DNA of 64,000 nucleotides from a virus (taxonomy: Duplodnaviria > Caudoviricetes), in the IMG/VR virus record IMGVR_UViG_3300017911_001939, positions 1 to 64,000 of that record, one strand, 5' to 3'. This document shows, piece after piece, positions 17,588 to 63,660 of this stretch. The position numbers and the translations under genes are program-made. Within the stretch, counting starts at the first letter, position 1. Each line of letters opens with the position of its first letter. The notes beneath the pieces were generated by a model. It saw only the letters and a program-made list of their open reading frames with translations. It ran no database searches and was not told the DNA's origin.

Positions 17588-18143
17588 AGTATACGAATAT
17601 AAAGACTACGACGAATATGTAAATATTCAGACTCGTGAAAATAAAAAAAAAGTTTCATGGGTCTATGCGCGAGAAGTTGGCATGAAAGGTATCACAGAAG
17701 ATAAAGGTACCGCAGAAAGTGTTATTTGCCATGGTACTCGCAATGGTAAAGAGATGACATTCTTCGCTAGGTATTGGCCAAATGCTCGATACGTTGGTAC
17801 TGAAATCTCTGATAATGCACATGAGTTTAAACATACTGTGCAATGGGATATGCAAGAACCAAACGAAGAATGGATCGGTCAGTTTGATGTAGTCTATTCG
17901 AATGCTTATGATCATGTAATTAAACCTGAATACACACTACAAACATGGAAAGATCAGCTAAAAGAAGGTGGTACACTCTACCTCGAATATGCTGAAGCAC
18001 AAAGTATTGGTAATGAAAATGATCCTCTCGATGCTACACTTAAAGAAGTAATTCAAATGGTTATCGATGCTGGATTTAAAAATGTTGCATGTCTCGACAC
18101 TGTTGTAGCACATGCAGGAAAGATTATTAGAGGCGATAAATGA
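17580..18143 (+). CDS. Class I SAM-dependent methyltransferase
   Basis: ICHGTRNGKE, GTEIS, FDVVYSNAYDH, LKEGG. Confidence 0.75.
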   Translation: MVKVYEYKDYDEYVNIQTRENKKKVSWVYAREVGMKGITEDKGTAESVICHGTRNGKEMTFFARYWPNARYVGTEISDNAHEFKHTVQWDMQEPNEEWIGQFDVVYSNAYDHVIKPEYTLQTWKDQLKEGGTLYLEYAEAQSIGNENDPLDATLKEVIQMVIDAGFKNVACLDTVVAHAGKIIRGDK

Positions 18144-20165: not shown

Positions 20166-20796
20166 AAAAGCTTTCATCACTGGCGCAGATAGCAACACCG
20201 AATGGATGTTACCGTGGTTCTTCGAAAATTACAAGAAGCACAATAAGACACCAATCCTTCTTGCAGACTTTGGCATGAAAAACCCAAAGAAATACAAGAA
20301 GTATGTGCATGCTATTATTGACATGACACATATTCAAGAAGAAGGTTGGTTTAAAAAGCCGAAGGCAATCATTTATTCTCCTGCTGAAATGACAGTATGG
20401 ATCGATACTGATTGTGAAGTGCTTAAACCAATTGATGACATCTTTGATCGCTTAGAACCAAACAAACTGAATATGGTAAAAGATAAGCCATGGTCAAAAC
20501 GATTTGGTATGGAGATGTATAACTCTGGGATTGTGGGTGTTATTAAGAAGCCTAATATTCTTTACGATTGGGCCAAACAAGTACAAGAAAATCCTGCACG
20601 TGGAGATCAAGAGACTCTTGCTCAGATGCTCGATGATCCTCTCAAAACTCTCACATATATAAATCCAATACCGAACGAATATAATTGGCTTCGTGTACAG
20701 GTTGCAAATGATAGGCAAAATAGCCCACATAAAAAAGTAATGCACTGGACTGGAGCTAAAGGTAAGGACAAAATCAAGGAGAAGATGCGTGCCTAG
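20140..20796 (+). CDS. Glycosyltransferase (GT-A fold, GT8-like); start uncertain
   Basis: GWFKKP, WIDTDC, YNSGIV, GDQETL, YNWL, MHWTG. Confidence 0.75.
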   Translation: MTKTIKSFKKAFITGADSNTEWMLPWFFENYKKHNKTPILLADFGMKNPKKYKKYVHAIIDMTHIQEEGWFKKPKAIIYSPAEMTVWIDTDCEVLKPIDDIFDRLEPNKLNMVKDKPWSKRFGMEMYNSGIVGVIKKPNILYDWAKQVQENPARGDQETLAQMLDDPLKTLTYINPIPNEYNWLRVQVANDRQNSPHKKVMHWTGAKGKDKIKEKMRA

Positions 20797-21466
20797 AGTA
20801 GTTCATGTAATTGGTAATGGTGATAAGGCCGAACTGTTTCAGCGTAAACCTCGTAAAGGTTTAAAAATCGCATGTAACCAAACACCATTTCCTATTGAAG
20901 ACAAATACGCAACAGCAATGGTCGACTTCAAGTTTATGAATGCTATGAAGAGTGGATCAGTTGTAATTGATGGTAAATGGATTTGCGGGTTTAGACCACA
21001 GAAATGGTGTAACGATAATCCATCTTATCATATGAAATGGGCTCAACAAATTCGTGAGTTCTATACAGAATTACCTAAATACGCGTTGATGCCAGGTGAT
21101 GGTGTTGGTCAAGGCTATACTAATTTTAACTGTGGTCATTTAGCAGTACATTATGCATGTAATAGACTAAAGGCAGATGAAGTGCATATGTATGGTTTCG
21201 ATTCTATTTTTGATTGGAATCCACGTAGCTTCTCAGATCTTGTTCTTAATTCTGACCGTGGTAATACCAATAGTCATCGTTTGATCGGCAATTGGCGTCC
21301 AATCTGGACAGGTATGTTTCTCGAGTTTAAAGATACTAAGTTTGTTCTACATCATACTCACGACAAATTTAAAATTAAAGTAAGTGATAATGTGTATGCA
21401 GAAGTATATGGACCTGAGAAAAAAGAAGCTGCACCACTAGATCCTAACGAATTTTCTTCGGCATAG
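20789..21466 (+). CDS. Putative glycosyltransferase (sialyltransferase/DUF115-like fold)
   Basis: HVIGNG, IACN, NCGHLAV, MYGFD motifs. Confidence 0.55.
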   Translation: MPRVVHVIGNGDKAELFQRKPRKGLKIACNQTPFPIEDKYATAMVDFKFMNAMKSGSVVIDGKWICGFRPQKWCNDNPSYHMKWAQQIREFYTELPKYALMPGDGVGQGYTNFNCGHLAVHYACNRLKADEVHMYGFDSIFDWNPRSFSDLVLNSDRGNTNSHRLIGNWRPIWTGMFLEFKDTKFVLHHTHDKFKIKVSDNVYAEVYGPEKKEAAPLDPNEFSSA

Positions 21467-21469
21467 CTA

Positions 21470-21498
21470 TTTACAAATGCTCTATTACTTGGTATAAT
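21470..21498 (+). promoter_or_regulatory. Sigma70-like promoter
   Basis: TTTACA-N17-TATAAT, GGAG RBS downstream. Confidence 0.75.
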
Positions 21499-21522
21499 AA
21501 TACAAATAATGGAGTAAACGAT

Positions 21523-21954
21523 ATGCTAAGTATTAACGTCATAGGTGGCACTCAAGCCGAAAGGTCCTTAGTCGTGGATGCATTTGATTTTGCATGCAAA
21601 GAACTGATGCCTCGTAAACAAAACCTTGACGTTGAAGTTATGCTCACTGATATCGAAGGCGATGCAGATGGATTTCATCTTTGTGTAGATACTAATGAAC
21701 ATGAAATCGAACTGCAACGTGGTCTCATCGAAGAAGACTTAGCAACCGCACTCTTTCACGAAATGGTACATGTACGTCAGCACTGTCGCGGCAGACTAAA
21801 AGATAACGGAGTCATCAAAGTCTGGGATGGCGTCGAGTACCTCTCGCTTTATTCCACTGTAGAAGAATATATGGCATTGCCATGGGAGGAAGAAGCGTAT
21901 AGACTCCAAGAGGAACTATATACAAAATGGAATACTCTTTCGGAATCCCACTAA
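21523..21954 (+). CDS. HExxH metallopeptidase-like protein
   Basis: LFHEMVHVRQ and PWEEEAY. Confidence 0.75.
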   Translation: MLSINVIGGTQAERSLVVDAFDFACKELMPRKQNLDVEVMLTDIEGDADGFHLCVDTNEHEIELQRGLIEEDLATALFHEMVHVRQHCRGRLKDNGVIKVWDGVEYLSLYSTVEEYMALPWEEEAYRLQEELYTKWNTLSESH

Positions 21955-39200: not shown

Positions 39201-39641
39201 ATGGCAAGAGTATTTTCACAAGAAGACGGGAATCTAAATACAGCTCCCATTATTACGTCAAGAAAGGTAGCATATTCTGACGTAGACTTGACATTTGCGA
39301 AAAAGTCGAGTGGAGATGTATTTAAAAAATCTGATGCGGCATCTGTAAAGCAAGCCGTAAAGAATTTACTATTAACTAATAATGGAGAAAAACCATTTCA
39401 GCCACTTTTTGGTGGTGATTTAAATAGATTTTTATTTGATTTAGATACAGAATTTGACGAGTCAGAAATCGTTGACCAAATTGGCACAACTATTGCTAAC
39501 TATGAACCACGTGCCTTGTTTATGGGTGCCAAAGCTAAATTAAATCCTGATCAAAATAGTGTTGCTATTACTGTTAGATTTCAAGTAGTAAGCACGTTCG
39601 AAGTAGTAGACTTAAATGTTTCATTAACGAGGTTGAGATAA
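39201..39641 (+). CDS. gp25: Baseplate wedge subunit gp25
   Basis: YSDVDLTF, VKQAVKNLLLTNNGEKPFQPLFG, NYEPR. Confidence 0.92.
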   Translation: MARVFSQEDGNLNTAPIITSRKVAYSDVDLTFAKKSSGDVFKKSDAASVKQAVKNLLLTNNGEKPFQPLFGGDLNRFLFDLDTEFDESEIVDQIGTTIANYEPRALFMGAKAKLNPDQNSVAITVRFQVVSTFEVVDLNVSLTRLR

Positions 39642-41473
39642 TGGCAGTCATTAAATCATCTGATCTTGATTTTGACAATATCAAGACCAATTTAAAAACG
39701 TATTTAAAGCAAAGTTCTGAGTTTGCCGATTATGATTTTGAGGCTTCAGGCTTATCAAATATTCTCGACGTATTGGCATATAATACGCACATTAACGGCC
39801 TCATTGCAAATATGGCTATTAATGAATCGTTTTTAAGTTCGGCACAATTAAGATCTTCTGCAGTATCTCATGCCGAAACGCTTGGTTATTATCCTCGTTC
39901 TAAAACAGGTTCTACGGCAACTGTTACGCTAAAAGCTGCAACCTCTGATACAACCACTGTGTCAGCAACTCTTCCTGCATATTCTTCATTTACCGCTAAT
40001 GTTGATGACGTATCTTATACATTCCAAACTACCGAAGCTTATACTGCATCAAATGATGGTAGTGGTAACTTTACATTTAAAACTACGGCAGGTAGTGACA
40101 ATATTATTATTAAAGAAGGTTCGCTTAAAACTAAAAACTTTATTGTGGGTGATACAGCAGATAATCAGGTCTATGTGATTCCTGATGAAAATATCGACAC
40201 ATCTACGATTGTTGTAAAAGTTTACGATACTACAACTAGTTCAACATTTACAACATACACAGATATTCAAAAGCAAGTTCGAATCAATACTACTTCGACA
40301 GTATTCATTGTGCGTGAAGTACCAAATGGCTATTTCGAACTGACATTCTCTGATGGTAATGTTCTTGGTAAATCGCCAGTTGCTGGCAATAAAATCGAAG
40401 TAACATATCTTCAAGTAAAAGGTGCAGTAGCTAATAATGCTACATCATTTGTGGCTGATAATAAAGTTACAGTTGGTGGCGTACAATATACACTGACTAC
40501 CACAAAAGTTGCTAACTCTGGTGGTGGCGCAGACAAAGAAACAATCTCGTCTATTAAGGCGAATGCACCTGTTGCCTTTGCTACTCAACAGCGTCTGGTA
40601 ACAGCTGAAGATTATAAAGCTTTGATCCTACAAAGATACTCATCGACAGTAGAAGATGTGATTGCATGGGGTGGTAACGATAATGTTCCTGCTACATATG
40701 GTAATGTATACGTCGCATTGAAGTTCAAAACAGGTGTTACAGCTGCTACACAGACTACCGTAAAAGATTCAATTAAATCAAATTTAGCAAATAACCTTGG
40801 TATCATGTCAATCGATACAATATTTTCTGATCCTCTCGATACATTCCTTGAGATTGCTACAACATTTAACTTTGATCCAGATTTGACGGGCGATACGGTT
40901 GATACTACACAGACAAATGCCCAAAATACTGTAAACAACTTCTTTACAGATAACCTTAATAAGTTTGGTGCAATCTTTAGAAAATCTCAATTGCTTACAA
41001 AAATTGATGCACTTTCTCCTGCGATTTTGAATACACAGCAATCGATTAAAGTACAACAAAGATTTAAGCCTACTCTTAATTCAAACACAAACGCAGATGT
41101 TAATTTCCCTGTCACATTGGCTACAGCAGATGATGTAAATTATCGAGTGACTACGACTAACTTCACTATGCTGGCTCAGAAGTGTTTTATTAGAAACACG
41201 CTAAAGAGTACGAAACTTGAGCTAATCAATGCAGAAACAAATGATGTAATTAGAGATAACATTGGATCGTATAATCCTGCGACAGGTGTTATTAGTTTTG
41301 TTGGGTTGAATGTAAGTGCATTCGAGGGTGAAAATATTAAAGTATCGGTAACACCTGCCGATGAAAATACAATCAAGCCATTAAGAAATTATATTCTGAA
41401 GGTTGATACTTCTAAGTCGTCTGCAAACGGCGTTACTGACTTCCAGAACACAGCGGTTACATTGAGCACATAA
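39641..41473 (+). CDS. gp6: Baseplate wedge subunit gp6
   Basis: LDFDNIKTNLK, DYDFEASGLSNILDVLAYNTH, QQRLVTAEDY. Confidence 0.95.
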   Translation: MAVIKSSDLDFDNIKTNLKTYLKQSSEFADYDFEASGLSNILDVLAYNTHINGLIANMAINESFLSSAQLRSSAVSHAETLGYYPRSKTGSTATVTLKAATSDTTTVSATLPAYSSFTANVDDVSYTFQTTEAYTASNDGSGNFTFKTTAGSDNIIIKEGSLKTKNFIVGDTADNQVYVIPDENIDTSTIVVKVYDTTTSSTFTTYTDIQKQVRINTTSTVFIVREVPNGYFELTFSDGNVLGKSPVAGNKIEVTYLQVKGAVANNATSFVADNKVTVGGVQYTLTTTKVANSGGGADKETISSIKANAPVAFATQQRLVTAEDYKALILQRYSSTVEDVIAWGGNDNVPATYGNVYVALKFKTGVTAATQTTVKDSIKSNLANNLGIMSIDTIFSDPLDTFLEIATTFNFDPDLTGDTVDTTQTNAQNTVNNFFTDNLNKFGAIFRKSQLLTKIDALSPAILNTQQSIKVQQRFKPTLNSNTNADVNFPVTLATADDVNYRVTTTNFTMLAQKCFIRNTLKSTKLELINAETNDVIRDNIGSYNPATGVISFVGLNVSAFEGENIKVSVTPADENTIKPLRNYILKVDTSKSSANGVTDFQNTAVTLST

Positions 41474-42498
41474 TGCCTAAACATTTTACATCCAACGGAA
41501 GACGAGATCTAGTACTTACCACGTCCAAAACTGGTGAAGTATTACCTCAATATTATGAAAATGATAATTCTAAACTTATCAAATTACTTGATGAGTATTA
41601 TGATTTTTTGGATTCCGATGGATCTCAGGCATTTTCCGATACAATTAAAGAGATTGTATATGCTCGTGATACTGCCGAAACGAAGACAGAATTTCTTGAC
41701 GAATTAGTAAAAGAAATCGGTGATGGATTGCAGGTTTCTACATTCTTCCATCAACCAAGACTTATGGCTAAATTACTTGGTGGATTCTATAGATCAAAAG
41801 GTTCTATTGTATCGGCCGAAGGTTTCTTCCGCGGATTCTTTAATGAAGAAGTTACGGTCGAATATCCGAAGAAAGACATCTTTACGGTTGGCGAATCTCA
41901 AATTGGATTTGATTCGCAAAAGTTTATTCAGAATAACGGGATCTATCAGATTTTTTCTGTATTGCTTAAAGTTGGTATTTCTACACAAGACTACGAAACA
42001 CTTTATAAAAAGTTTGTACATCCTGCAGGATTTCACTTTGCTGGTGAGGTTACATCTGTTGAAGAAGGTGCGTTAACACTTTCAGGTCAAGGTCTAAATC
42101 CTCTCGATTCAGCAGCTGGTATTTCTACTCTTGCGTCTGAAGCAAATGTTATCTTCTCTACACCGTTCAGCGAACTTACCGCGTTCCTCGATTCTGGCGC
42201 AGATGAAGAAAGATATCGTGTTACTGTCGATCAACCAGTATCCGACTTCCAGGCTCTTACAGCAAATGAGATCTCGAAATTCTACCCAACGATTACAGCT
42301 CTTGTCGATCCAAACTCTTTCACATTCGACGACAGCGATACAACTGGCCGTCCAGACTTCTCACTGGCTGCCGAAACTATGGACAACGATCTCTACAGAA
42401 GAGATTTACCAACATTAACTCGATTCTTTATGTCTAACACTAATATCACATTCGATGATATCACAGAGACATTTGATGATGGTGGTGCTGGAAACTAG
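41473..42498 (+). CDS. Baseplate wedge protein (gp7-like)
   Basis: FYRSKGS..FFR..F, YQIFSVL, FVHPAGFHF; follows gp6. Confidence 0.7.
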   Translation: MPKHFTSNGRRDLVLTTSKTGEVLPQYYENDNSKLIKLLDEYYDFLDSDGSQAFSDTIKEIVYARDTAETKTEFLDELVKEIGDGLQVSTFFHQPRLMAKLLGGFYRSKGSIVSAEGFFRGFFNEEVTVEYPKKDIFTVGESQIGFDSQKFIQNNGIYQIFSVLLKVGISTQDYETLYKKFVHPAGFHFAGEVTSVEEGALTLSGQGLNPLDSAAGISTLASEANVIFSTPFSELTAFLDSGADEERYRVTVDQPVSDFQALTANEISKFYPTITALVDPNSFTFDDSDTTGRPDFSLAAETMDNDLYRRDLPTLTRFFMSNTNITFDDITETFDDGGAGN

Positions 42499-42499
42499 A

Positions 42500-42507
42500 T
42501 ATAAATA
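42500..42507 (+). promoter_or_regulatory. T4-type late promoter
   Basis: TATAAATA upstream of 42540. Confidence 0.7.
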
Positions 42508-42539
42508 AAGTAAACCTTATTTTACAGAGGAATTAAAAA

Positions 42540-43361
42540 ATGGCAAGACAAAACATTGGTGTCGGCGCCTCCGCCAATGATGGTACTGGTGATACACTGC
42601 GCAGTGCAGGTACTAAGATCAATGATACCTTCGTTGAAATTTACCGTATGCTGGGTGGCGGAGACTCTGATAACCTTTCATCCCAAATCTCACTTGAAGA
42701 TAGTGCAATTGTATTCGAAGGCGCTTCTATCGATGCATTTGAAACTCGTCTGACAGTAGTAGATGCTACAGCCGATAGACAAATTCAATTACCTGATGCA
42801 GCTGGTATTGTTACGCTTAATGATGCTACACAGACATTAAGTAATAAGACTATTCAGGCTCCACAAATTAATTCACCAAAAATTGGTGCTGCGATCAACG
42901 ATTCAAATGGTAGCGAGTTAATTAGCTTTACATCTAATTCAACTGCGATTAACCAAATCAATATTGCAAATGCGGCAACAACAAATGCTCCTGTTCTTTC
43001 AGTAATTGGTACTGATGCGAATATCAATATGACAGTGAATTCAAAAGGTACTGGTTCGGTTGAGATTCGTAAAGCAGCATACACATCTTCTGAGATTACT
43101 GCAAACGGTGCAGCTTCTGCTAACGCTACTTACATCATCTGTAATAAAGCGACAGCATTGGCAATCTCTCTCGCTGATGGTACAACAACGGGTGAATACA
43201 AAATCTTTACGAACAAAGGTGCTGGTCTGGCAACAGTTACTCCTGCTAACTTCTCGGCTGGTTCATCTTTTGCAATCGCACAGAACGAAGCCGCTCAGTG
43301 TGTATGGGACGGAGCAAATTGGTTCCTTATCGGTAACCAAAGCGTCTGTACGGTAGTATAA
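42540..43361 (+). CDS. Baseplate wedge/tail fibre connector (gp9/gp10-like N-terminus)
   Basis: MARQNIGVGASANDGTGDTLRSAGTKINDTFVEIY. Confidence 0.75.
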   Translation: MARQNIGVGASANDGTGDTLRSAGTKINDTFVEIYRMLGGGDSDNLSSQISLEDSAIVFEGASIDAFETRLTVVDATADRQIQLPDAAGIVTLNDATQTLSNKTIQAPQINSPKIGAAINDSNGSELISFTSNSTAINQINIANAATTNAPVLSVIGTDANINMTVNSKGTGSVEIRKAAYTSSEITANGAASANATYIICNKATALAISLADGTTTGEYKIFTNKGAGLATVTPANFSAGSSFAIAQNEAAQCVWDGANWFLIGNQSVCTVV

Positions 43362-43371
43362 GAGGTAAGTC

Positions 43372-44739
43372 ATGGTAGCAATTGTAACTGATCCACTGAA
43401 ACTAAAGTTCGCTGAATTTATTTTCAACGAAGCGACAAGCACTTCTGACAGTCATGAGTATTATATCGGTATCGGTAAGGCTGATACCTATGATAGCTCG
43501 GATACTGTTGCTACACCTGTTCGCACACTTCAAGAAGAAAGAGAAGCACGTAATAACCTACAATCTGTAAAGAAAGTAACTGGTACATCGTTCGTTATTC
43601 CACGATATAACTGGTCATCTGGTTCTACGTATTCTCCATGGCAAGATAATCAAACAGGTATTCCATCAAATACTTACTATGTAATGACAGAAGATAACGA
43701 AGTTTATATCTGTTTACAACAAGGTAAGTCTGCAACTGGTACATCGAATGCTTCTACTGTAAAGCCATCGTATACTGATGCTGGTGTGGCAGAAACGCAA
43801 GCCTTTGAAACATCTGATGGTTATCGCTGGAAGTTAATGTATGCGCTATCTGCATCGAGAGCAAATACATTCCTTTCTTCTGGTTTTATTCCATGTCAAA
43901 ATGTAACAATTGATTCTGGTTCGGCTAACGCATTTGAATTACAGCAGTTAAATATTCAAAACACCTCATTGCCTGGTGCAATTCTTGGTGTAGAAATTGT
44001 AGATGCTGGTACAGGTTATACATCTGCTCCTACTATTACATTCAAAGGCAACGGATCCGGTGCGACAGCAACTGCCACAATTTCTGGTGGTGCTATTGTA
44101 AAGGTTGAGATGGATAACGAATCTGCAGGTATGGGTTCTGGTTATGATTATGCTTCGGCCACTGTAACTGGTAACGCATCACTTCGACCAATCCTTGCAC
44201 CTCAAAAAGGTATTGGTAACGACGCTCGAGCAGATCTTAAATCATCTTCGATTATGTTTAACATTAAGCCGTCTGGTACTGAGAACGATACGTTCAATAT
44301 TACTAACGACTTTAGACAAATCTTATTGCTAAGAAATCTTGACGAAATGGATAGTGCACAAGATGGCAACCGCTATACAGGTACATCATCTAAAGCACAA
44401 AGATTCTTAACAATTACTGGTACAGTATCGGCATCAAACTTTGTTGTCGATGAAAAAATTACAGGCGGCACATCAGGTGTAACAGCGTTTGTTGACGAAC
44501 TCGATTCAAACTCTGGTAACAAGATTTTCTTCCATCAAAACAGCAATAATATTGCTGGTAACTTTACTGATGGAGAAACAATCACGGGTTCTGGTTCTGG
44601 TTCAGCAACTGTAGATAGTGGTGATAAACACACTGCGGTCGATAATCACTCTGGTGAAGTCTTATACATAGAGAACAGAGCACGTGTTATCCGCTCGAAC
44701 ACACAAACTGAAGATATTAAAGTAATTATTACGGTGTAA
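43372..44739 (+). CDS. gp8: Baseplate wedge subunit gp8
   Basis: YIGIGK, VIPRYNWSSG, YYVMTEDNEVYICL, DGYRWKLMY, GEVLYIENR..EDIKVII. Confidence 0.88.
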   Translation: MVAIVTDPLKLKFAEFIFNEATSTSDSHEYYIGIGKADTYDSSDTVATPVRTLQEEREARNNLQSVKKVTGTSFVIPRYNWSSGSTYSPWQDNQTGIPSNTYYVMTEDNEVYICLQQGKSATGTSNASTVKPSYTDAGVAETQAFETSDGYRWKLMYALSASRANTFLSSGFIPCQNVTIDSGSANAFELQQLNIQNTSLPGAILGVEIVDAGTGYTSAPTITFKGNGSGATATATISGGAIVKVEMDNESAGMGSGYDYASATVTGNASLRPILAPQKGIGNDARADLKSSSIMFNIKPSGTENDTFNITNDFRQILLLRNLDEMDSAQDGNRYTGTSSKAQRFLTITGTVSASNFVVDEKITGGTSGVTAFVDELDSNSGNKIFFHQNSNNIAGNFTDGETITGSGSGSATVDSGDKHTAVDNHSGEVLYIENRARVIRSNTQTEDIKVIITV

Positions 44740-44742
44740 AGA

Positions 44743-47700
44743 ATGGCAACAACACTTACCAATACTACGTTCTCCACTACCTATAAGGACGACTATAAAG
44801 ACTCCGATAATTTTCATCGGATTCTCTTTAATAGTGGTAAGGCGTTGCAAGCTCGCGAACTTACGCAGATGCAAACTATTATCCAAAACGAGATTCAACG
44901 TTTTGGTTCTAACATCTTCGTAGATGGCGGGGTTGTACAGCCTGGTGGCTTAACAGTTAACAACAAACTAGAATATATTAGACTTGCAGCTTCACAGCTG
45001 CCAGTAAATCTTGACGATATTATTGGTAAGACATTTACTGTAAAATCTCCTGACCCTGCACTAAGAGTAAAAGTTCTCAAAGCGGTTAGAGCAGATGGTT
45101 CTGATCCTGATACATTATATGTAGAATACGTATCTACTTCTGCTGGTACATCTTCATCTGCACCCGTTCGCGTAGGTGCATCTCAAGTTCTTGAGAATAC
45201 AGATCTTGGCTCATCATATGATATGACAATTGCATCATCGAATGCGGTTGGTCAAGGCACAGAAGTTTCTATCGCTAAAGGTAGTTTCTTTGTACAAGGT
45301 CACTTTGTATTCTGCGCCAAACAATCTATTTTCGCCGAAAAGTATTCTACAAATGCTAACAAAGATGTTGGCCTTAAAGTAGAAGAAGAAATCATTGGTG
45401 CAACAGATGATGATGGTCTATACGATAACCAAGGTGCAACTCCAAACTTAGCAGCTCCTGGTGCCGATCGTTATAGAATTAAGTTAACTCTTACAACTCG
45501 TGACGCAATCGATTCTACTGACAACTTTGTATATCTTGCAAAGGTAAGTTCTGGTAAAATCGTAGACGAATCACGTACAGATAATTCTTACAATGTTCTT
45601 AACGATGTATTAGCATTGAGAACAAAAGAAGAATCTGGTAACTATATCGTTAAGCCGTTTAATGCACAGTTTAACTCAAAGAATGATTCGAATCTTGAGC
45701 TTGAAATTAGTGATGGTATTGTATATGTAGATGGTTATCGTTTGAATGCAGACGGTAAGAAAATCAACGTACCAAAAGCACAAGATACAATTACAATTAA
45801 TAATGAAACGATTGTTGTCCAGTATGGTAACTATATCATGGGCAGCAACAGCACATCTAAAGGTTTGCCTGAAATTGACACATTGGCAAAACTAACACTA
45901 AGATCTGCAGCTACATTCGGTGGCGATGATCTTGGCACATGTCGCTGTCGTTTCGTCGAAGAAGATAATAGTGGTGATTCTCGCTTCTATCTCTTTGACA
46001 TCCAAATGAGACCTGGCAAAAACTTCAGCTCAGTTCGTTCTTTCGGTACTAGCACATCTGACTATATCGATGTCGTACTCGAAGGTGGTGTTGCCGTATT
46101 GAAAAATACTGGCAATAACGATCTACTGATGCCTCTGCCGAGAACACGTCCTACGAATACTGGTATTACGCATGATACTATTACTTTCTTGAAGAAGTAT
46201 TCGATGACGACTAACACAAGCGGTAACTCTACTGCTAATATCGCGGCTGGCGCTGGTCTCACATTTACGAATCTAAACGCATGGATTGCTGCGGCTGATG
46301 ATAGTGCCATTGACGGTTCTATTAATCTACAGCTCGATGGTACACAAGAAAACTTCTTCGTTAACGATGGTTCTGGTGTAGCAAGTAAGACATACGAAGT
46401 ATTGGCATACGTAACTAAAGGTTCTCCATCAAAGAGAACAAAGTCACTTAACAATACAACAATTACTAAAGCATGGCCTGGTGATGTAGAATCCGATGGT
46501 ACAGGTGCAGGCATTGAATTCCTTGCACTCGATAAGGCTGATATTTTTGAAGTCGAAGCAATTAAGATTGAAGACTCTGATGGTGCCGATATCACGACTA
46601 ACTTCAACATCGATAACGGTCAAAGAGATAACTACTATGGCATTGGTCGTATTGTCAAGAAAGCTGGCTCTACGATTCCAACTGGTGACATCTTTGTAAG
46701 ATACAAGTACTTTACACACGGCAATGGTGATTTCTTCGATATCACTTCATATCCTACTGCTTCAGTACCATACGACAAAGTTCCATCACATACACAAAAT
46801 GACGGTACAGTTGTATCGCTGAGAGATGTGATTGATTTCAGACCAGTTGCTGTACGAGATGCAGACAATGCTGATTCATCTATCTTATCATTTAACTTTG
46901 ATTCAAACGGTGCTGGTGGTAATCCAATTATTCAGTCTCTGCCTCAGTCAACTGACACATTTACGGCAGACATCGTATATTATATGCCAAGAGCCGATCG
47001 CCTTGTAGCTACGTTCCTCAACGAGAAAGGTGAACGCCTTCCGCGCGGTCAGGTTAAAGTAGTACAAGGTGTATCTTCTCTTGATCCTCAGCTTCCTGCT
47101 ATTCCGACAGGATCGATGCCGCTTTACAATATGAACCTGAATCCATTCACGTTGAATGAGTCAGATTTGACAACAGCATTTATTCCTGCCAAGAGATTTA
47201 CGATGGCAGATATTGCTGAGTTAGAACAGCGTATCGATACATTACAAGAATTGACCACACTGTCACTGCTTGAGGTTGATACTTCTAACCTTACAGTTCT
47301 TGACTCTGCTGGTAACGAAAGAACAAAAGCTGGTTTCTTAGTTGATAACTTTAAAGACTTTGCATTCTCTGCTGTTGGTCGTGATGAGTATCGTGCAGGT
47401 GTTGATGAGCTTGCGGGTTTACTTGAGCCATTACAAGAAGCACACAATACTCGCCTTATCTTCGATTCTGCAGATGCAAACTCTACTGTAATTCGTAAAG
47501 GTGATAACTTATATCTGCCTATCGATTCAGATGTTATGATGATCAATCAGGCTCTTGCAACAGAAACTGAGAATATTAACCCATTCGCAGTGATTGTTTC
47601 TCAAGGTCATATGGAATTATCTCCTTCTTCTGACGAATGGGTAGAAACTCGCTATGCACCTGATAACATTGTACAAGGTGAAACAGTAACAGAAAGATTG

Positions 47701-49845
47701 GCTACACGTAGAATTGCTCGTATTCGCCAAAGACTTTCTGCATTCCGTGATCGCTGGATTGGTAACCCAACTGGTTCTCGAGTCCTTGTTCGTGGTGATG
47801 TAAGATCTCGCCGTGAAACAATTGCTGATCGCGTTATCGATGTATCGTTTATCCCATTCATGAGAGCACGTAAGATCTTCTTCCGTGTACAAGGTTTGCG
47901 TAGAGATACTAAGCACTTCCTCTTCTTTGGTGGTCAAGATATTTCAGATTATGCAAGAGAAGAAACAGTATTCGAAAGATTCGCTGCTCGCTCTGATAAT
48001 CCTGGCAGCATCTTTACAAATCATACTGCACACCCAAATGGTACTTCGGCTCTGACATCAGATTCTGCAGGTAAGTTAGTTGGTTCATTTATTATTCCAT
48101 CTAACAATGCTCTGAAGTTTAGAACAGGTGCACAAAGAGTTGAGCTGATGGATGTCACATCTGGTAATGCAGACGATGCTATCTCTAAAGCACAGACAAC
48201 ATTCCAATCAACTGGTATTCTAAACACTCGTCAAAGAACAGTCAGAAATACAAGAATTGAGACTGAGTTCTTTGTACAAGAATATGATCCATTAGCACAA
48301 ACATTCCGTGTTGATGCACAAGAAGATCCAAACGGTATCTACATTACAAAGTGTGATATTTTCTTCTCTACAAAAGAAGATAATTTTGGTGTTCCTGTAC
48401 AAATGCAAATCAGACCAGTTGAAAATGGTATTCCAACGTCTGCTCCGATTCCAGGTGCTGTTAAGTTCTTGAATCCACAAGATGTTAATATTCCATCTAA
48501 CTTAAATAGCTTGTCTACTATTCAGGCAACGCCAACAACATTTGAGTTTGATGAGCCTGTATATCTTGAGCCACAAAGAGATTATGCGATTGTTCTCCTT
48601 GCAGATACAACTGCATATAACGTGCATGTCGCTAAGACTTATGACTTCCTGATTGGTTCTACTGAACAGCGTGTTACTAAACAGCCAACGCTTGGTTCGA
48701 TGTTTATCTCTCAGAATGGTATTACTTGGACGCCTGATCAAGAACGTGATCTGATGTTCAGATTATATAGAGCACAGTTCGCTACTTCTGGTAAAGCTAT
48801 CCTTAATAACTCTGAGACAGAAAAACGTCTACTTGAGAATAATCCGCTTCTAACAGATTCTGCAGATCCTAGCAAGCTTCGTGTATTCCATGAAGGTCAT
48901 GGTTTTGCTAAGAACGATTATGTTACAATTAGTGGACTTGACTCAAGCACAACATATGCAGGTGTTATCGGTACAGACATTATGGGTTCAAGACAGATTA
49001 CCTCTGTCGACCATACTGGTTATACATTTACTATGGATTCATCTGCAAATGCAGCATTAAGACTTGGTGGTAACGGTGTCATCGCAACGCAAAATGCTAT
49101 GTATGATGCCTTTGTTCCTCAAATTCAAATCTTACAGCCTGATGATACAACTATCTCTGCTAAGATTAAACAAACTGAAGGATCTTCGTTTGGTAATCAA
49201 AGAAATACTGTATTCTCTCAAGCTGGTAAGCAATCTACATATACAGATATTACACTAAATGAATTTAACTTCAATGAGACACCTAAAGTTATCTTTAGCG
49301 ATTCAAACGAAACAGCAAATATTTCAAGTGCAAAATCTATGACAATGGAAATTACGCTTGGCACATCTGATAATAAGGTTTCACCAATTATCGATTTGCA
49401 ACGTGCGTCGATTGCATCGTTTGAAAATACGATTGATAGTGGTGGTTCTCATGCTATCACAACGATTGGTGAAACTGATCCTACTGAAGGTACCGCGGCT
49501 GCTAAGCATATCACAAAAGCAGTTACGCTTGAAGAGCCTGCGGTTGGTTTGAAGATCTTGTTTGCAGCTAACAGACCAGCTGCTGCAGGATTTAAGGTGT
49601 TTATTAAGACTGCGACATCTGATGAAACCTTAGATGATGTTGCATATGTAGAAATCACCGAAGAAACAAACAATCCAGCGGACGAAAACAAAGATCGCTT
49701 TAGACAATACGAATATCTTGCTGGTGGACAAGTTGGTAACCTCAACTCATTCACTCAGTTCCAAGTTAAGCTCGTAATGACAAGTACTAATACTTCTAAG
49801 ATCCCAACAGTAAAAGATCTGAGAGTAATTGCATTGGTGACATAA
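44743..49845 (+). CDS. Large virion structural protein (DUF4815/VrlC-like)
   Basis: DDY..NFHRILF..QARELTQMQT, APGADRY, RTKEESGNY, DPLAQTF; 1700 aa. Confidence 0.8.
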   Translation: MATTLTNTTFSTTYKDDYKDSDNFHRILFNSGKALQARELTQMQTIIQNEIQRFGSNIFVDGGVVQPGGLTVNNKLEYIRLAASQLPVNLDDIIGKTFTVKSPDPALRVKVLKAVRADGSDPDTLYVEYVSTSAGTSSSAPVRVGASQVLENTDLGSSYDMTIASSNAVGQGTEVSIAKGSFFVQGHFVFCAKQSIFAEKYSTNANKDVGLKVEEEIIGATDDDGLYDNQGATPNLAAPGADRYRIKLTLTTRDAIDSTDNFVYLAKVSSGKIVDESRTDNSYNVLNDVLALRTKEESGNYIVKPFNAQFNSKNDSNLELEISDGIVYVDGYRLNADGKKINVPKAQDTITINNETIVVQYGNYIMGSNSTSKGLPEIDTLAKLTLRSAATFGGDDLGTCRCRFVEEDNSGDSRFYLFDIQMRPGKNFSSVRSFGTSTSDYIDVVLEGGVAVLKNTGNNDLLMPLPRTRPTNTGITHDTITFLKKYSMTTNTSGNSTANIAAGAGLTFTNLNAWIAAADDSAIDGSINLQLDGTQENFFVNDGSGVASKTYEVLAYVTKGSPSKRTKSLNNTTITKAWPGDVESDGTGAGIEFLALDKADIFEVEAIKIEDSDGADITTNFNIDNGQRDNYYGIGRIVKKAGSTIPTGDIFVRYKYFTHGNGDFFDITSYPTASVPYDKVPSHTQNDGTVVSLRDVIDFRPVAVRDADNADSSILSFNFDSNGAGGNPIIQSLPQSTDTFTADIVYYMPRADRLVATFLNEKGERLPRGQVKVVQGVSSLDPQLPAIPTGSMPLYNMNLNPFTLNESDLTTAFIPAKRFTMADIAELEQRIDTLQELTTLSLLEVDTSNLTVLDSAGNERTKAGFLVDNFKDFAFSAVGRDEYRAGVDELAGLLEPLQEAHNTRLIFDSADANSTVIRKGDNLYLPIDSDVMMINQALATETENINPFAVIVSQGHMELSPSSDEWVETRYAPDNIVQGETVTERLATRRIARIRQRLSAFRDRWIGNPTGSRVLVRGDVRSRRETIADRVIDVSFIPFMRARKIFFRVQGLRRDTKHFLFFGGQDISDYAREETVFERFAARSDNPGSIFTNHTAHPNGTSALTSDSAGKLVGSFIIPSNNALKFRTGAQRVELMDVTSGNADDAISKAQTTFQSTGILNTRQRTVRNTRIETEFFVQEYDPLAQTFRVDAQEDPNGIYITKCDIFFSTKEDNFGVPVQMQIRPVENGIPTSAPIPGAVKFLNPQDVNIPSNLNSLSTIQATPTTFEFDEPVYLEPQRDYAIVLLADTTAYNVHVAKTYDFLIGSTEQRVTKQPTLGSMFISQNGITWTPDQERDLMFRLYRAQFATSGKAILNNSETEKRLLENNPLLTDSADPSKLRVFHEGHGFAKNDYVTISGLDSSTTYAGVIGTDIMGSRQITSVDHTGYTFTMDSSANAALRLGGNGVIATQNAMYDAFVPQIQILQPDDTTISAKIKQTEGSSFGNQRNTVFSQAGKQSTYTDITLNEFNFNETPKVIFSDSNETANISSAKSMTMEITLGTSDNKVSPIIDLQRASIASFENTIDSGGSHAITTIGETDPTEGTAAAKHITKAVTLEEPAVGLKILFAANRPAAAGFKVFIKTATSDETLDDVAYVEITEETNNPADENKDRFRQYEYLAGGQVGNLNSFTQFQVKLVMTSTNTSKIPTVKDLRVIALVT

Positions 49846-50069
49846 TGGATAAATACATAAATGTAGAAGGAAAAGCTGGTTTAGTAAGAAGTAAAGCTTC
49901 AGGCGCAATCATCAATGTGAATAGCAATGAGATGTCTCAAGCCAGACATAGAAAAAAAATCTGGAAAGATCAACAAGAAGAATTGCAAACTTTAAAAAAT
50001 GATGTAGCCGTGATGAAGGATTTGCTCTTACAACTAGTAGAGGAAAAGAATGGCCGTAACAACAATTAA
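49845..50069 (+). CDS. Small conserved virion-associated protein
   Basis: VEGKAGLVRSKASGAIIN + coiled coil. Confidence 0.7.
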   Translation: MDKYINVEGKAGLVRSKASGAIINVNSNEMSQARHRKKIWKDQQEELQTLKNDVAVMKDLLLQLVEEKNGRNNN

Positions 50070-50580
50070 TCTGTCGGATCCAGTTTCTACCTGGGTTAAC
50101 AAGACTAATACAATCGCCACTAATGTTGGTGATTTGGCTACGCTATCGACATCCGATACAGCGAGTCTTGTTGCTGCCATTAACGAAATTAATGGTCTGA
50201 TAAATACAAATTTAAATGACTCAAACGAAATTAAAGGGATGTTCGTATCATCTACTTCTATTGAGTTTGATTCATCTGCCGGATCATTTAGCATTATTGA
50301 TTCAGCAGTTACTGGGGCAATGATAGATAATGATGCAATTGTAGAAAGGCATATTGCTGCAGCTTCAATTGTAAATAGTCATCTTTCACCTGGTGCGGTT
50401 GACACATTAGCACTTGCTGATGGAAATGTAACGAATGCTAAATTAGCTGATTCCTCTATCGGCTTCTCAAAAATTCAAGCTGGCGCAATTAAGTCAGTGA
50501 ATTTTGTTAATACAACTACGCTGTTGATTAAAGATTCTGCAGCTACAACATTGAAAACATTATATAGTCCTGGAAGTTAA
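50050..50580 (+). CDS. Fibre-like structural protein
   Basis: WVNKTN..VGDL..L..ASLVAAINE; 10-aa AVT..KI/L repeats. Confidence 0.7.
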   Translation: MAVTTINLSDPVSTWVNKTNTIATNVGDLATLSTSDTASLVAAINEINGLINTNLNDSNEIKGMFVSSTSIEFDSSAGSFSIIDSAVTGAMIDNDAIVERHIAAASIVNSHLSPGAVDTLALADGNVTNAKLADSSIGFSKIQAGAIKSVNFVNTTTLLIKDSAATTLKTLYSPGS

Positions 50581-51551: not shown

Positions 51552-52085
51552 ATGGCTTTTCACTGGGAAGAAGGAATTGAATACGCCCGTTATATTGATG
51601 AAGATCGTCAAAATATCGAGGTAATGCATATTATTGAAGACGATGAAAATATTCATGGTCGTTCAGCCAAATTGCATGTATTACCTGCTGATGATAACGA
51701 TGTGCAATTCAAAGCTTTACTCGAGCATTTCACATATGATGATATTATGGAAATGACATATAGCTATAATCAAAATGCAGAACGTGCATTCGAAGAGCAA
51801 GTTATAGCAATCGCCCAAAAATCTGGAGTACTAGCTACTCTAGATGTTGACGTTGTTTCTTATGAATATGTCGATAAGCTTATCGATATTCTCTTCTTAG
51901 AAAAAGGTATTAAAGATAAAGAACTAAAAGAACTTATCTTTAAAACCAAACTTAGATTATTTGAAACTGATTTGGTTAAAAATAATAATAATAAAGAACT
52001 TAAAAGTTCATTACGCAAATCATCGTCACTAAAAGATATTTTTTATATTATGATGCAGATTGAGGAAGATACTCCTCAAACCTAG
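51552..52085 (+). CDS. Hypothetical protein, possible tail fibre chaperone
   Basis: AGGA RBS; acidic 177 aa protein after fibre-like genes. Confidence 0.55.
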   Translation: MAFHWEEGIEYARYIDEDRQNIEVMHIIEDDENIHGRSAKLHVLPADDNDVQFKALLEHFTYDDIMEMTYSYNQNAERAFEEQVIAIAQKSGVLATLDVDVVSYEYVDKLIDILFLEKGIKDKELKELIFKTKLRLFETDLVKNNNNKELKSSLRKSSSLKDIFYIMMQIEEDTPQT

Positions 52086-52848
52086 AAAAATCTTTATTAA
52101 CCACATGATGAAGACTTGCGCCTAAATGCTTAGTCGAAAATGTGTTATCAATTATCCAATTCCAACTTAGTCCAATAGGATTAATTGGTATTTTATAAAA
52201 TTCTTTTATAAAAGAAAAATAGACCTCATTGTTCCTAGAGAATGATGAGGCTATTTCTTTTGGATAGATGTTATCAACTAGTGCTTCATCAAAAATAGTA
52301 TCTGCATAATCCAATCTTTCACTTAATCTAAAATCTTCAATAGCGTTTTTATTGCCAATTAACACGCCGGTGTTAGCAATTTGGTTATTACCGCTGATAC
52401 CTTCTAATAGTAACATTGCATTTTTGCAACATGCCTTTACTACCATATTCATTTTATCAAAATCAATTGTATCAATCCACCAATCACCATATACCCGTTC
52501 TCCCCAATTAGGCTTAGTATCGATAAAATGTGCACCTACATATTTGTGAGTAGCATGTTTATCAAAAATATTTTGAGCGCTTGTGGGTATTACGTCTAAG
52601 TCTAAATAAACTACTTCATCATATTCGTTTGCTAAGTCTTCAAACCTATATAATTTTTCAAACTGTAGGTCATCATAATCTGGAATAGAAGGAGTAAAAC
52701 AATGATATTCTGCATTACACAGATTAGCATAATCTTTGTGAGCAGATATTAATCGATCTTTATATTTTGCAAACGCATCTTTCTTTTCTTGTGGAGATGA
52801 AGTGTGCCTATGAACATCTGCCCAAATACTATAGATAATTCTTTTCAT
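52048..52848 (-). CDS. Glycosyltransferase (GT-A fold)
   Basis: YDEVVYLDLDV, NTGVL, NNE, HVVNK; paralog of upstream gene. Confidence 0.75.
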   Translation of the reverse strand: MKRIIYSIWADVHRHTSSPQEKKDAFAKYKDRLISAHKDYANLCNAEYHCFTPSIPDYDDLQFEKLYRFEDLANEYDEVVYLDLDVIPTSAQNIFDKHATHKYVGAHFIDTKPNWGERVYGDWWIDTIDFDKMNMVVKACCKNAMLLLEGISGNNQIANTGVLIGNKNAIEDFRLSERLDYADTIFDEALVDNIYPKEIASSFSRNNEVYFSFIKEFYKIPINPIGLSWNWIIDNTFSTKHLGASLHHVVNKDFSRFEEYLPQSAS

Positions 52849-53698
52849 AAAAATCAAAAACCTCTTTGAATTTTTTATTGATAACATGTACGAATTTGCT
52901 TTTGCGTGGAACTACTTTATACCTATCATAAAACATATGCCATGGCCAATCCAACCATTGAATAGGTATATTTCTAGTTTTAACTAAGTAAGACCATATC
53001 GTTTCATTATCCCATCCAAACATTTCTCTAATATCTTCAGGATACATTTCGTCGTTTTTTAGATTATCCATATCTTTAATTACGGCATCTAAATTATCGA
53101 AATATGCTAATTGCTTCATATGCTCTGACGATACTCCCACAATGCCTGTATTAAATACATCATTATCGGTGTTATATCCGTTCGATTCTAATAATGCAAA
53201 GCAATTCCAATATTTTGCAGTTGGGCTTCTATTAGATTCGACAGGCCGATTACGCAATTCTCTTAGAGTTTTCTTCGCTAGATTGTTATTATCTTTAATC
53301 GCGATGCCTTTAGATAAGTCGTGCACTTCAAAGAAATTTTCTTGAGTCATAGGAACTACGTCAAAATCTAAATAAAGAATTTCGTCGTAATGACGAGATA
53401 GCTCGTGTATGATTTGTAGCTTATAGAAATTTACTATATTATATTCGGTTATTTGCGGATATGTTTCGTTAAACCATTTTTTATATAATTTAAAATCTTC
53501 ATCATACTCGTACATCAAGAACGTTACACCAATATCATTGGCATATTTTTGTTTACATGCTAATAATTTATCATAATACTTTTGAAATTCTATTTTAGTT
53601 CTTTCGGTTTTAGGTATATCATCACCATAGTAAGGTGCTTGATAATCCAAATCTTCTTTTGGAATATCGATATACAAACTATAAATTACTCTACGCAT
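52829..53698 (-). CDS. Glycosyltransferase (GT-A fold)
   Basis: YDEILYLDFDVVP, FNTGIV, DNET, HVINK. Confidence 0.78.
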   Translation of the reverse strand: MRRVIYSLYIDIPKEDLDYQAPYYGDDIPKTERTKIEFQKYYDKLLACKQKYANDIGVTFLMYEYDEDFKLYKKWFNETYPQITEYNIVNFYKLQIIHELSRHYDEILYLDFDVVPMTQENFFEVHDLSKGIAIKDNNNLAKKTLRELRNRPVESNRSPTAKYWNCFALLESNGYNTDNDVFNTGIVGVSSEHMKQLAYFDNLDAVIKDMDNLKNDEMYPEDIREMFGWDNETIWSYLVKTRNIPIQWLDWPWHMFYDRYKVVPRKSKFVHVINKKFKEVFDFYEKNYL

Positions 53699-54341
53699 AA
53701 CCAATTACCATATATCTTTCATAACCGTTTGACATTTTTAATTTGCCAGAATATTTAATGTTAGATAATCCGCATTTATCTTCAAGTTCCCATCTTGAAT
53801 TTACACAATTGCTGTGGTCATCAATATGAAACATATTATTGCTTTGAATTGCAAATAATGGTATTTCATAATTACGTCTATGAAAAAATGGTTCGATATA
53901 CTTTTTTCGAATAATATTTTTCATGTCTGGCATATGTTCTGATGACGTGTTAATTATTAGATTAGCTTTTTCATCTAAAGGACCATTTTCTTGAACATCC
54001 CCGCATCGCTCAGCATAAGCATAGTTTTTTAATTTCATATAACGTCTAAAAACATTTAATGATTTAATATCTAAATCAATATTTTCTACAAAGGAAATAT
54101 CTAATGTAGAGTTTAATAATGCCACAATGGGAAAGCCTATCCATCCTCCAAATAGTTGAACATGAATATCGTCTTTTTCTAAAAGATGCGGTATAATTTT
54201 ATCTACTAGCCATACTTTCGATTCAATTTGATGTGGTGACATAGAATCAAGTAAATGTTTTATGTCATACTTTTCGCTTTCTGTATTTTCCCATAAAATT
54301 TGCCAAATATCTGGATCAATTCCAATAGTGTTCAAATCCAT
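53691..54341 (-). CDS. SAM-dependent methyltransferase-like protein
   Basis: SKVWL, LFGGWIG, NIDLD, IINTSSEHM, QSNN. Confidence 0.65.
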   Translation of the reverse strand: MDLNTIGIDPDIWQILWENTESEKYDIKHLLDSMSPHQIESKVWLVDKIIPHLLEKDDIHVQLFGGWIGFPIVALLNSTLDISFVENIDLDIKSLNVFRRYMKLKNYAYAERCGDVQENGPLDEKANLIINTSSEHMPDMKNIIRKKYIEPFFHRRNYEIPLFAIQSNNMFHIDDHSNCVNSRWELEDKCGLSNIKYSGKLKMSNGYERYMVIGYA

Positions 54342-55023
54342 CATAGCCCTCATCATCTAACAAATATTTGCCATTAATATATTCGGTATTCCGTCTCCAT
54401 CCGTTAAATATGCAGACAGGATATGTATCATCTTTAAAAAGAGGTTTAGATTTTGTGCCAGCTTTAAAGTAATTGTTTTCATCAATACCGTATAACCGGG
54501 AATAGATTTCACCTTTCGGAAATACATTAAGCTTATCGTAATGGTGATAATATAGATATGAATCTATACCATTATATTTTACCATATAATAATCAGGATC
54601 TTTCATAAATTCTGACCATATAGATGTTAGATCACCGTGCCATATCATAACAGACGAGTTATAGTTCATATCGGTACCAGTCAATTCGTATGGTTTCCAA
54701 TATGCCTCGATAAGTCTTAGCTTACTCTTCTCGCAATAATCTTTGAAGTGTGTAATGTCATTTTGCAGTACGACATCTAAGTCAAAGAACATTTCAGGAA
54801 CTACAGCTGGTTCTTTAAATAACCGTAGTTTCCACCACCAGTTTTCTAAATCATATTCTTGTTCGAGAGGTTTTCTTAGAATATATGGATGCAAACCGCG
54901 AGGATCATCAGTATAGCAAACGAATCTAAATGATTCGTTAAACTGTTTTGTGCACATAGCATATAATCGATTTACATGCTCGTACGAAAACTTATCACCC
55001 CATTTTACGCAAGATATAATCAT
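54316..55023 (-). CDS. Glycosyltransferase (GT-A fold)
   Basis: CVKWGDKF, CYTD, WWWKL, FFDLDVV, YNSSVM. Confidence 0.8.
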   Translation of the reverse strand: MIISCVKWGDKFSYEHVNRLYAMCTKQFNESFRFVCYTDDPRGLHPYILRKPLEQEYDLENWWWKLRLFKEPAVVPEMFFDLDVVLQNDITHFKDYCEKSKLRLIEAYWKPYELTGTDMNYNSSVMIWHGDLTSIWSEFMKDPDYYMVKYNGIDSYLYYHHYDKLNVFPKGEIYSRLYGIDENNYFKAGTKSKPLFKDDTYPVCIFNGWRRNTEYINGKYLLDDEGYDGFEHYWN

Positions 55024-63309: not shown

Positions 63310-63660
63310 ATGGCCCAATACGAAGAAATTACAATTGATCAAGGTGCGGATGCATCTATTGAACTACATCTTGTGAATACAGATGGCTCTAAGAAAAATC
63401 TTACGAACCACACCGTCACAGCGAAAATGAAAAAGAATTATACGAGCGACAGTTCAGACACAACCGATTTTGTGTCAACAATCGCAAATGCTCTTGACGG
63501 TATTGCAACTATTTCATTAACAAATCTACAAACAGATGCCCTTAAAGCAGGTCGATACGTTTATGATGTTGAGCTATCATTTCAAGATAGCGATGGTGAT
63601 ACGATTATTGAAAGGGTGTTAGAAGGTAAAATTACAATCACGCCGTCTGTAACGAGGTAA
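63310..63660 (+). CDS. Virion structural protein (Ig-like/BppU N-like)
   Basis: ITIDQGAD, KMKKNY, GRYVYDVE, RVLEGKITITPSVT. Confidence 0.7.
   Translation: MAQYEEITIDQGADASIELHLVNTDGSKKNLTNHTVTAKMKKNYTSDSSDTTDFVSTIANALDGIATISLTNLQTDALKAGRYVYDVELSFQDSDGDTIIERVLEGKITITPSVTR

Follow-up and report, generated by a model that had tools for sequence, protein, structure and literature searches.

An Asp-Ser motif confined to the exterior virion proteins of one lineage of marine T4-like phages, and its possible role as a signal for serine modification

The baseplate and fibre locus

The DNA analysed here (the window) is a stretch of 64,000 nt from the viral record IMGVR_UViG_3300017911_001939, and represents the first 64 kb of a linear 123,209-bp IMG/VR contig that is estimated to be 73% complete. 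A T4-type baseplate is encoded in the window, comprising gp6, gp7-like, gp9/10-like and gp8 proteins, a DUF4815/VrlC-like protein and small fibre proteins. The subject of this report is a short motif, Asp-Ser (DS) followed by Ala, Asp, Ser, Gly or Asn (the small followers), which occurs in exterior proteins of this virion far more often than their composition predicts. An earlier note on the sequence had drawn attention to the motif between positions 41473 and 50580, and had read it as a possible O-glycosylation sequon of the type known from Bacteroidota, with glycosyltransferases (GTs) of the phage as the modifying enzymes. The six proteins counted in that note are listed below, together with gp6, which serves as an internal negative control.

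41473..42498 (+): gp7-like baseplate wedge protein, 341 aa (PF23786, phrog_17744); 5 DS, 4 with a small follower
42540..43361 (+): gp9/10-like baseplate-fibre connector, 273 aa (PF07880, phrog_677); 3 DS, followed by D, A or N
43372..44739 (+): gp8 baseplate wedge protein, 455 aa (phrog_438); 6 DS, 5 with a small follower
44743..49845 (+): VrlC-like giant baseplate protein, 1700 aa (DUF4815, PF16075, phrog_358); 17 DS, 15 with a small follower
50050..50580 (+): small fibre protein, 176 aa (tail-fibre PHROGs); 5 DS, all followed by N, S or A
63310..63660 (+): tail-fibre-assembly-like protein, 116 aa (phrog_1084, phrog_3304); 2 DS (DSS and DSD)
39641..41473 (+): gp6 inner baseplate wedge protein, 610 aa; 1 DS (DSI), with 3.5 expected

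The phage belongs to a group of uncultured marine T4-like phages of a Kyanoviridae-type lineage. The nearest isolate is Phage C48C1 (Kyanoviridae), with 39% identity in gp8; the gp8 proteins of cyanophages are approximately 25% identical. The host is likely to be a member of SAR116 (Alphaproteobacteria) and not of the Bacteroidota, because a PstS-type phosphate-binding gene of the phage (PF12849; 22155-23255, + strand) shares 73-80% identity with genes of numerous SAR116/Puniceispirillaceae genomes, which is an indirect hint.

Frequency of the motif and null models

A recount of the six proteins gave 38 DS dipeptides, 34 of them with a small follower, exactly as reported in the earlier note; its observation that gp6 contains a single DS, despite its 41 D and 52 S residues, was likewise accurate. 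That note had suggested a comparison with composition-shuffled proteins, and the excess withstood it. Shuffling of whole proteins led to expectations of 19.9 DS and 7.7 DS with a small follower (standard deviation 2.7), and none of 20000 shuffles reached the observed values. When residues were shuffled inside 10-residue windows, 21.4 and 8.8 were expected, respectively, and none of 1000 shuffles reached the observed values; nor were they ever reached with 20-residue windows. An artefact of local composition was rejected on the basis of these window shuffles.

The motif had been chosen after inspection of the proteins. A look-elsewhere control was therefore applied, in which the best five followers were picked post hoc for each of the 400 dipeptides. 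DS ranked highest of the 400, with a value of 34, while the maximum statistic of the shuffled proteins had a mean of 21.1 and peaked at 32 in 2000 shuffles. Post-hoc choice of the motif was rejected as an explanation by this test.

The bias does lie within the coordinates first given for it, but these proved too narrow, since late open reading frames (ORFs) carry it from 41 to 96 kb of the contig. ORFs were called on the whole contig, and the late set was defined as the 54 ORFs in that interval, leaving out a minus-strand enzyme island. In this set, 177 DS were observed with 90.3 expected, a z-score of 9.1 that is the highest of all 400 dipeptides (the next is 4.3). A small follower was found after 150 of the 177 (85%), compared with a background frequency of 39%. 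The residues following DS in the late set included A (47), D (44), S (25), G (22), N (12), T (11), V (3), I (2), L (1) and M (1). The other 119 ORFs of the contig contain 87 DS (99 expected), and 29% of these have small followers.

The motif is specific for Ser. In the late proteins, DT was found 94 times (96 expected) and is followed by a small residue in 26% of cases, so that it is unbiased in both respects. For ten control dipeptides in the same proteins (DT, NS, ES, NT, GS, SS, TS, DG, DA and DN) the fraction of small followers ranged from 0.26 to 0.52, as against 0.85 for DS. An artefact of repeats or paralogy was also rejected: when repeat and paralogue proteins were removed, the excess persisted (126 DS, 72 expected) and 80% of the remaining sites had small followers.

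A cause at the level of the DNA was considered as well, given that GAYTCN contains GANTC, a CcrM-type site. It was rejected, as the usage of both Ser and Asp codons in DS matches the background. Within DS, TCN codons account for 76% of Ser and AGY codons for 24%, the corresponding figures for all Ser residues of the same genes being 75% and 25%. It follows from the background-like Ser codon usage that selection has acted on the peptide and not on a GANTC-type DNA motif.

The context of DS is also non-random. A hydrophobic residue is found at position -1 in 49% of cases (background 31%), with L, I and F enriched; D, A, G and S predominate at +1, and G and D are enriched at +2. The motif can thus be written as hydrophobic-Asp-Ser-(Ala/Asp/Ser/Gly/Asn), often followed by Gly or Asp; selection maintains this short linear motif in a single lineage.

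Distribution among virion proteins

The motif is carried by the outer baseplate proteins (gp7-like, gp8 and gp9-like), VrlC, the fibres, the neck proteins gp14 and gp15, and the tail sheath, there probably in the outer domains. The strongest carriers are a 532-aa fibre protein, in which all 23 DS conform, the C-terminal part of gp14 (12 of 13), two paralogous fibres (9 of 9 and 8 of 9) and the sheath (6 of 6). In gp6, gp25, the hub proteins, the tube, the portal, the scaffold and the major capsid protein, 0-2 DS were found, with unbiased followers (1 DS in the tube and 2 in the major capsid protein). The bias is therefore confined to proteins of the virion exterior, and both the enzymes and the interior virion proteins lack it.

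The sheath provides a further view of this distribution. Residues 9-86 and 249-584 of the sheath protein align with T4 gp18 and flank a variable insert, which holds four of the six DS sites. The other two (residues 280 and 318) align with T4 residues that are not DS. Residues ~88-345 of T4 gp18 are taken by us to form its outward-facing domains, and the same is presumed for the corresponding part of this sheath.

An AlphaFold2 model of gp8 built from a 21-sequence alignment was only moderately reliable, with a predicted local distance difference test (pLDDT) score of 64.7. Most of the six DS sites are placed by it in loops or at the ends of strands; one is at the hairpin turn after the strand formed by residues 371-378, and the site at residue 415 is inside a predicted strand. 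The single-sequence model of the DS-repeat part of the 532-aa fibre (pLDDT 32.6) was unusable and is not taken as evidence.

Part of the fibre signal resides in repeats. A module of approximately 21-22 residues, DSxx(I/V)xxL(V/I)-DS(A/D)Y(V/I)xxR, is present in nine copies in three fibre proteins (contig positions 65638-67236, 67236-67676 and 79432-79716), and was not found in the sampled control genomes. Two further fibre paralogues, at contig positions 63924-65585 and 88362-89378, share the near-identical segment SVNDKxIxLADSAADSAAxxGAGIEV, which includes two DS sites.

Restriction to one phage lineage

All 24 of the IMG/VR loci whose gp8 is 43-85% identical to that of this phage show the signature (they are referred to here as DS+), and small followers make up 64-92% of their DS sites. 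It is also present in the larger related contigs G001, G003 and G004; in contig G006 it is seen only in the few late proteins there, where the followers are GAAA in the sheath and DIDD in part of gp14. The most extreme carrier encountered is a 1191-aa fibre protein of G003 (contig positions 47657-51232), which has 53 DS (13 expected), nearly all followed by A, S, T, D, G or N.

Genomes without the signature (DS-) served as controls. The structural regions of the phages below gave the following values.

T4: 73 DS observed, 70 expected; small followers 40%
S-PM2: 79 observed, 79 expected; small followers 34%
Pelagibacter phage Mosig: 52 observed, 74 expected; small followers 38%
Phage C48C1: 76 observed, 80 expected; small followers 45%
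Loci L027 and L028 (gp8 24% identical): 21 observed, 17 expected, and 52 observed, 52 expected; small followers 29% and 27%
SAR116 podophage HMO-2011: 49 observed, 39 expected; small followers 41%

Many of the DS in the C48C1 genome (OQ984149) come from a 1568-aa baseplate connector (15242-19948), in which a tandem repeat gives rise to periodic DS followed by D, A, E or K; this repeat raises the DS count without obeying the small-residue rule. An effect common to phages of the host was rejected on account of HMO-2011, which infects SAR116 and lacks the signature.

In a tree constructed from terminase, portal and sheath sequences, the DS+ genomes cluster together (75% bootstrap support) as a sister group to C48C1. 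It follows that the trait arose once, after the split from that phage.

Conservation of the sites

Sites of the motif are conserved in position. For gp8 residues 327, 378 and 415, D-S is kept in 21-24 of 26 orthologues, the third residue varying among A, S, G, N and D. Among 20 orthologues of the gp7-like protein, the D and S of DS have conservation values of 0.83 and 0.84, as compared with 0.44 for other D and S residues. In a comparison over four orthologous families, conservation was higher for Ser in DS than for Ser elsewhere (0.71 versus 0.52, p=5e-4); the values for Asp in DS and other Asp are 0.72 and 0.61 (p=0.09). In alignment columns with a DS majority, both residues were kept in 313 cases, D only in 20 and S only in 17, and both were lost in 25, with about 5 joint losses expected; this fivefold excess over independence is inflated by relatedness and alignment error.

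Orthologues of the 176-aa fibre in DS+ loci have 3-10 DS, with followers as in this phage, and orthologues of gp6 have 0-1 in most of those loci, with the exception of L019, where there are 4. In the enzyme genes that adjoin them in DS+ loci, DS is followed by V, W, Y, L, C, M, K or E. Outside the lineage, the VrlC-like orthologues of C48C1, S-PM2 and L028 have DG, DD, DN, DT or unrelated residues in the DS columns.

Glycosyltransferase-like genes and other genes of the contig

Two groups of GT-like genes are present in the window.

52048..55023 (-): four GT-like ORFs directly 3' of the fibre genes, putative modifying enzymes in which the followers of DS show no bias
14691..21954 (+): second GT-rich cluster, in the early region, with the members that follow
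14691-15476 and 18140-18826 (+): GT8-like ORFs, the first with a sub-threshold GT8 match at 14802-15377
17580-18143 (+): methyltransferase-like ORF
18823-19515 (+): GT25 ORF
20077-21954 (+): ORFs without assigned function

GT-like genes lie beside the fibre genes in all DS+ loci that are long enough to show this region. Those at 52048-55023 are conserved in the DS+ loci, and have homologues of 24-46% identity in Mosig. The ORF at 54316-55023 matches phrog_1962, a glycosyltransferase. The ORFs at 52829-53704 and 52048-52887 belong to virus-only clusters in the ESM Atlas, of which 10-25% of the members are GT8; these two assignments are leads only. No match to PF00535 or PF00534 was found in the contig.

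These ORFs form one end of a minus-strand enzyme island (52048-63219) of low G+C content (31-32%), which also contains carbamoyltransferase, SGNH-like, radical-SAM, DegT aminotransferase, PP-loop and nitroreductase-like ORFs. Most genes of the island have homologues (24-59% identity) in that of Mosig EXVC030M (MT647606, 61-71 kb).

The early cluster is common to the DS+ contigs G001 and G006, and its GT ORFs at 14691 and 18823 had no match in five DS- genomes. Three ORFs, at 20077, 20789 and 27298, were seen only in DS+ contigs. No Pfam or PDB match was found for any of the three and no PHROGs match for the first two; that at 20789 is a member of a hypothetical-protein family that is large and widespread.

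Several other genes of the contig were noted. A 335-aa baseplate-tip protein (38176-39183, + strand) has a PAAR motif fused to a CHAP/NlpC-P60 peptidase; it has homologues in G004 (71%) and G001 (36%), and none in the sampled DS- relatives. A 756-aa ORF (6432-8702, + strand) resembles class II (B12-dependent) ribonucleotide reductases, with weak Pfam matches only, and it too has no homologue among the sampled DS- relatives. Amid the fibre genes, at contig positions 73186-74109, is a 307-aa ORF that resembles membrane transporters (DUF401/CitMHS, phrog_14035), and a Methyltransf_24 methyltransferase adjoins it.

Interpretation of the motif

The explanation that is tentatively preferred here is that the motif constitutes an acceptor signal for a Ser-directed post-translational modification, probably cytoplasmic O-glycosylation, although as a whole this falls somewhat short of being probable. 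T4-type tails assemble in the cytoplasm. We infer that a trans-acting enzyme reads the motif, and that it would modify Ser in that compartment before or during tail assembly; such an enzyme would have arisen, or changed its specificity, after the split from Phage C48C1. For O-glycosylation, a GT-A-type enzyme of the phage (GT8-like or GT25-like) would be the leading candidate, and the sugar might be tailored by products of the aminotransferase, radical-SAM and carbamoyltransferase island. The result would be a particle whose tail, neck and fibres are coated on the outside with an unusual sugar that may be aminated or carbamoylated, while its capsid is left uncoated. Among modifications, glycosylation is favoured because of the GT-rich context and of three precedents, in Bacteroidota, in the staphylococcal SdgA/SdgB system and in mycobacteriophages. 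That it is O-glycosylation in particular, and by a phage GT-A-type enzyme, is a narrower proposal and, taken by itself, an unlikely one; what is left of the modification hypothesis may be some other modification of Ser. A literature search brought up no description of a D-S motif on the virions of phages.

A number of observations weigh against modification. The major capsid protein presents the largest exposed surface and yet has only the 2 DS mentioned above. No enzyme tracks the signature. Homologues of the genes of the 52-63 kb island occur in Mosig, which is DS-. Homologues of the early-cluster GTs (50% and 38% identity) are found in G005 (139-144 kb), an unrelated 183-kb phage contig of 59% G+C that is without the signature. 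The DS sites are positionally stable, with no turnover, and their context resembles that of ordinary Asx/type-I turns and helix N-caps. The GTs of pelagimyophage host-recognition clusters have been interpreted as modifying the O-chains of the host (PMC7029224). Finally, the single phylogenetic origin of the trait means that an association between gene and trait is not statistically testable, and that common descent inflates the apparent replication.

The motif might instead be purely structural, a strand-end Asx/beta-turn or helix N-cap that is preferred in the beta-rich tail proteins of this lineage and is never modified, and which has spread in part by duplication and exchange of fibre modules. 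Nine sites do lie in the DS[AD]Y[VI]xxR module and several more in the duplicated LADSAADSAA segment, but the excess and the follower bias remain when the repeat and paralogue proteins are removed. The residues preferred at -1, +1 and +2 fit turn and N-cap propensities; the equivalent turn-formers NS, DG, DN and DT show no such bias in the same proteins. The loops and strand ends occupied by most DS sites in the gp8 model would be compatible with it, as would conservation of position, and since outgroup orthologues often have DG, DD, DN or DT in the same columns, these would appear to be turn positions. A requirement of the fold should, however, be common to homologues, and those of C48C1, Mosig, S-PM2, T4 and L027/L028 show neither excess nor follower bias, which argues for a reader or a need that is specific to the lineage. 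Within DS+ genomes, bias is also absent from enzymes and from proteins of the virion interior, and a structural origin offers no reason for a convergent shift over dozens of unrelated families in one lineage. It is, in our judgement, the main alternative, albeit on the unlikely side. Less likely again, and improbable overall, is that DS is a binding site for a non-enzymatic partner. This might be a decoration protein, a chaperone particular to the lineage, or a divalent cation bound on tail surfaces through the Asp carboxylate and Ser hydroxyl. Clade restriction, the limitation to exterior proteins and the coupled conservation of D and S are all compatible with such a partner, and a cation would be well served by a third residue that is acidic or small (D in 44 of 177). 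No partner was identified, though, and the chemistry of cations does not differ from lineage to lineage: the motif is missing from Mosig, the cyanophages and HMO-2011, which live in the sea as well. Nor would a metal site typically require Ser to the exclusion of Thr, or have Ala most often in third place.

Of the remaining explanations, chance can be virtually dismissed. The motif and the protein set were indeed selected after inspection, and D/S-rich, loop-rich proteins that also abound in G, N and A have a background of 39% small followers; but neither the global, nor the local-window, nor the look-elsewhere-corrected shuffles ever reached the observed values, and a bias of this kind recurs in more than 25 related contigs, while the controls are free of it. 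The version that builds on the Bacteroidota analogy of the earlier note, in which Bacteroidota-type D-(S/T)-x sites are recognized by general O-glycosylation of the host or by a phage copy of it, is very improbable. The Bacteroidota sequon is D-(S/T)-(L/I/V/T/A/S/M), and is enriched in target proteins (PMC12871550, PMC8550257). Asp does precede Ser in this phage, and the Bacteroidota sequon admits Ala and Ser at its third position (PMC12871550). The phage motif does not extend to Thr, however, and L, I, V or M follow only 7 of the 177 DS while D, G or N follow 78, whereas in Bacteroides fragilis glycine at +1 abolishes glycosylation (PMC12871550). The Bacteroidota system acts in the periplasm and only on non-cytoplasmic proteins (PMC12871550, PMC8550257), which would be at odds with the cytoplasmic assembly of T4-type tails; the kinship of the phage PstS gene to those of SAR116 also speaks against it. 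The Bacteroidota version is thus contradicted on three defining features. What survives of the earlier interpretation is the biased motif of exterior proteins and the presence of phage GT-like genes; the Bacteroidota sequon does not, and the GTs stand as candidates.

Significance

Were Ser in this motif to be glycosylated, it would be the first defined O-glycosylation sequon outside the Bacteroidota and also the first in any bacterial virus. As a modification sequon, it would make the decorated surfaces of an uncultured phage predictable from sequence alone. It would also provide a defined, portable tag for protein modification in the cytoplasm. The GT islands of marine myophages, now seen as serving to modify the host O-antigen, would be reread as serving to coat the virion, with consequences for host recognition, evasion of defences and particle stability at sea. 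Should the motif prove to be purely structural, it would represent a clean case of a lineage-wide motif shift over dozens of unrelated proteins, for which an explanation would be needed.

Comparison with known systems

The motif resembles the Bacteroidota sequon in that it comprises three residues, with Asp directly before a hydroxy residue, is enriched in a target class and allows Ala or Ser as the third residue. It differs in being limited to Ser and in having A, D, S, G or N at the third position, and not mainly L, I, V or T. Its carriers are tail proteins assembled in the cytoplasm, not exported proteins, the likely host belongs to SAR116, and neither an oligosaccharyltransferase nor a flippase was identified.

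In staphylococci, SdgA and SdgB O-glycosylate Ser in serine-aspartate repeat domains (PMC3794999, PMC8561734). That system is similar to the present one in its specificity for Ser next to Asp; in this phage, DSD ranks second among the triplets. SdgA and SdgB are Glycos_transf_1-type transferases; the contig has, as noted above, no match to that family (PF00534). The staphylococcal substrates are long tandem SD runs in disordered stalks, while the sites in this phage are isolated DS in folded proteins, with no long SD runs among the DS contexts listed.

The virions of mycobacteriophages are glycosylated by GTs of the phages themselves (Freeman 2023, cited in PMC12619734). As that work is summarized there, in phages of the Che8/Corndog type the GT genes lie near structural genes and virion decoration is thought to be cytoplasmic, which is similar to the arrangement envisaged here. 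The glycans are described in that summary as located at the C-termini of capsid and tail-tube subunits, and it describes no D-S sequon. In the present phage, by comparison, the motif is almost lacking from the capsid and tube, and its sites are internal ones in baseplate, fibre, neck and sheath proteins.

The genomic layout finds its closest counterpart in the host-recognition cluster of pelagimyophages and cyanomyophages, which comprises VrlC, fibres, an enzyme island with GT8 genes, and gp14 (PMC7029224). The order is the same in this phage, with GTs, radical-SAM, aminotransferase and carbamoyltransferase genes between VrlC and gp14. The difference is that no virion motif was reported for that cluster (PMC7029224), and the structural proteins of Mosig are without the DS signature. 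If the sequon interpretation holds, the system would be a variant both of motif-directed bacterial O-glycosylation and of phage virion glycosylation.

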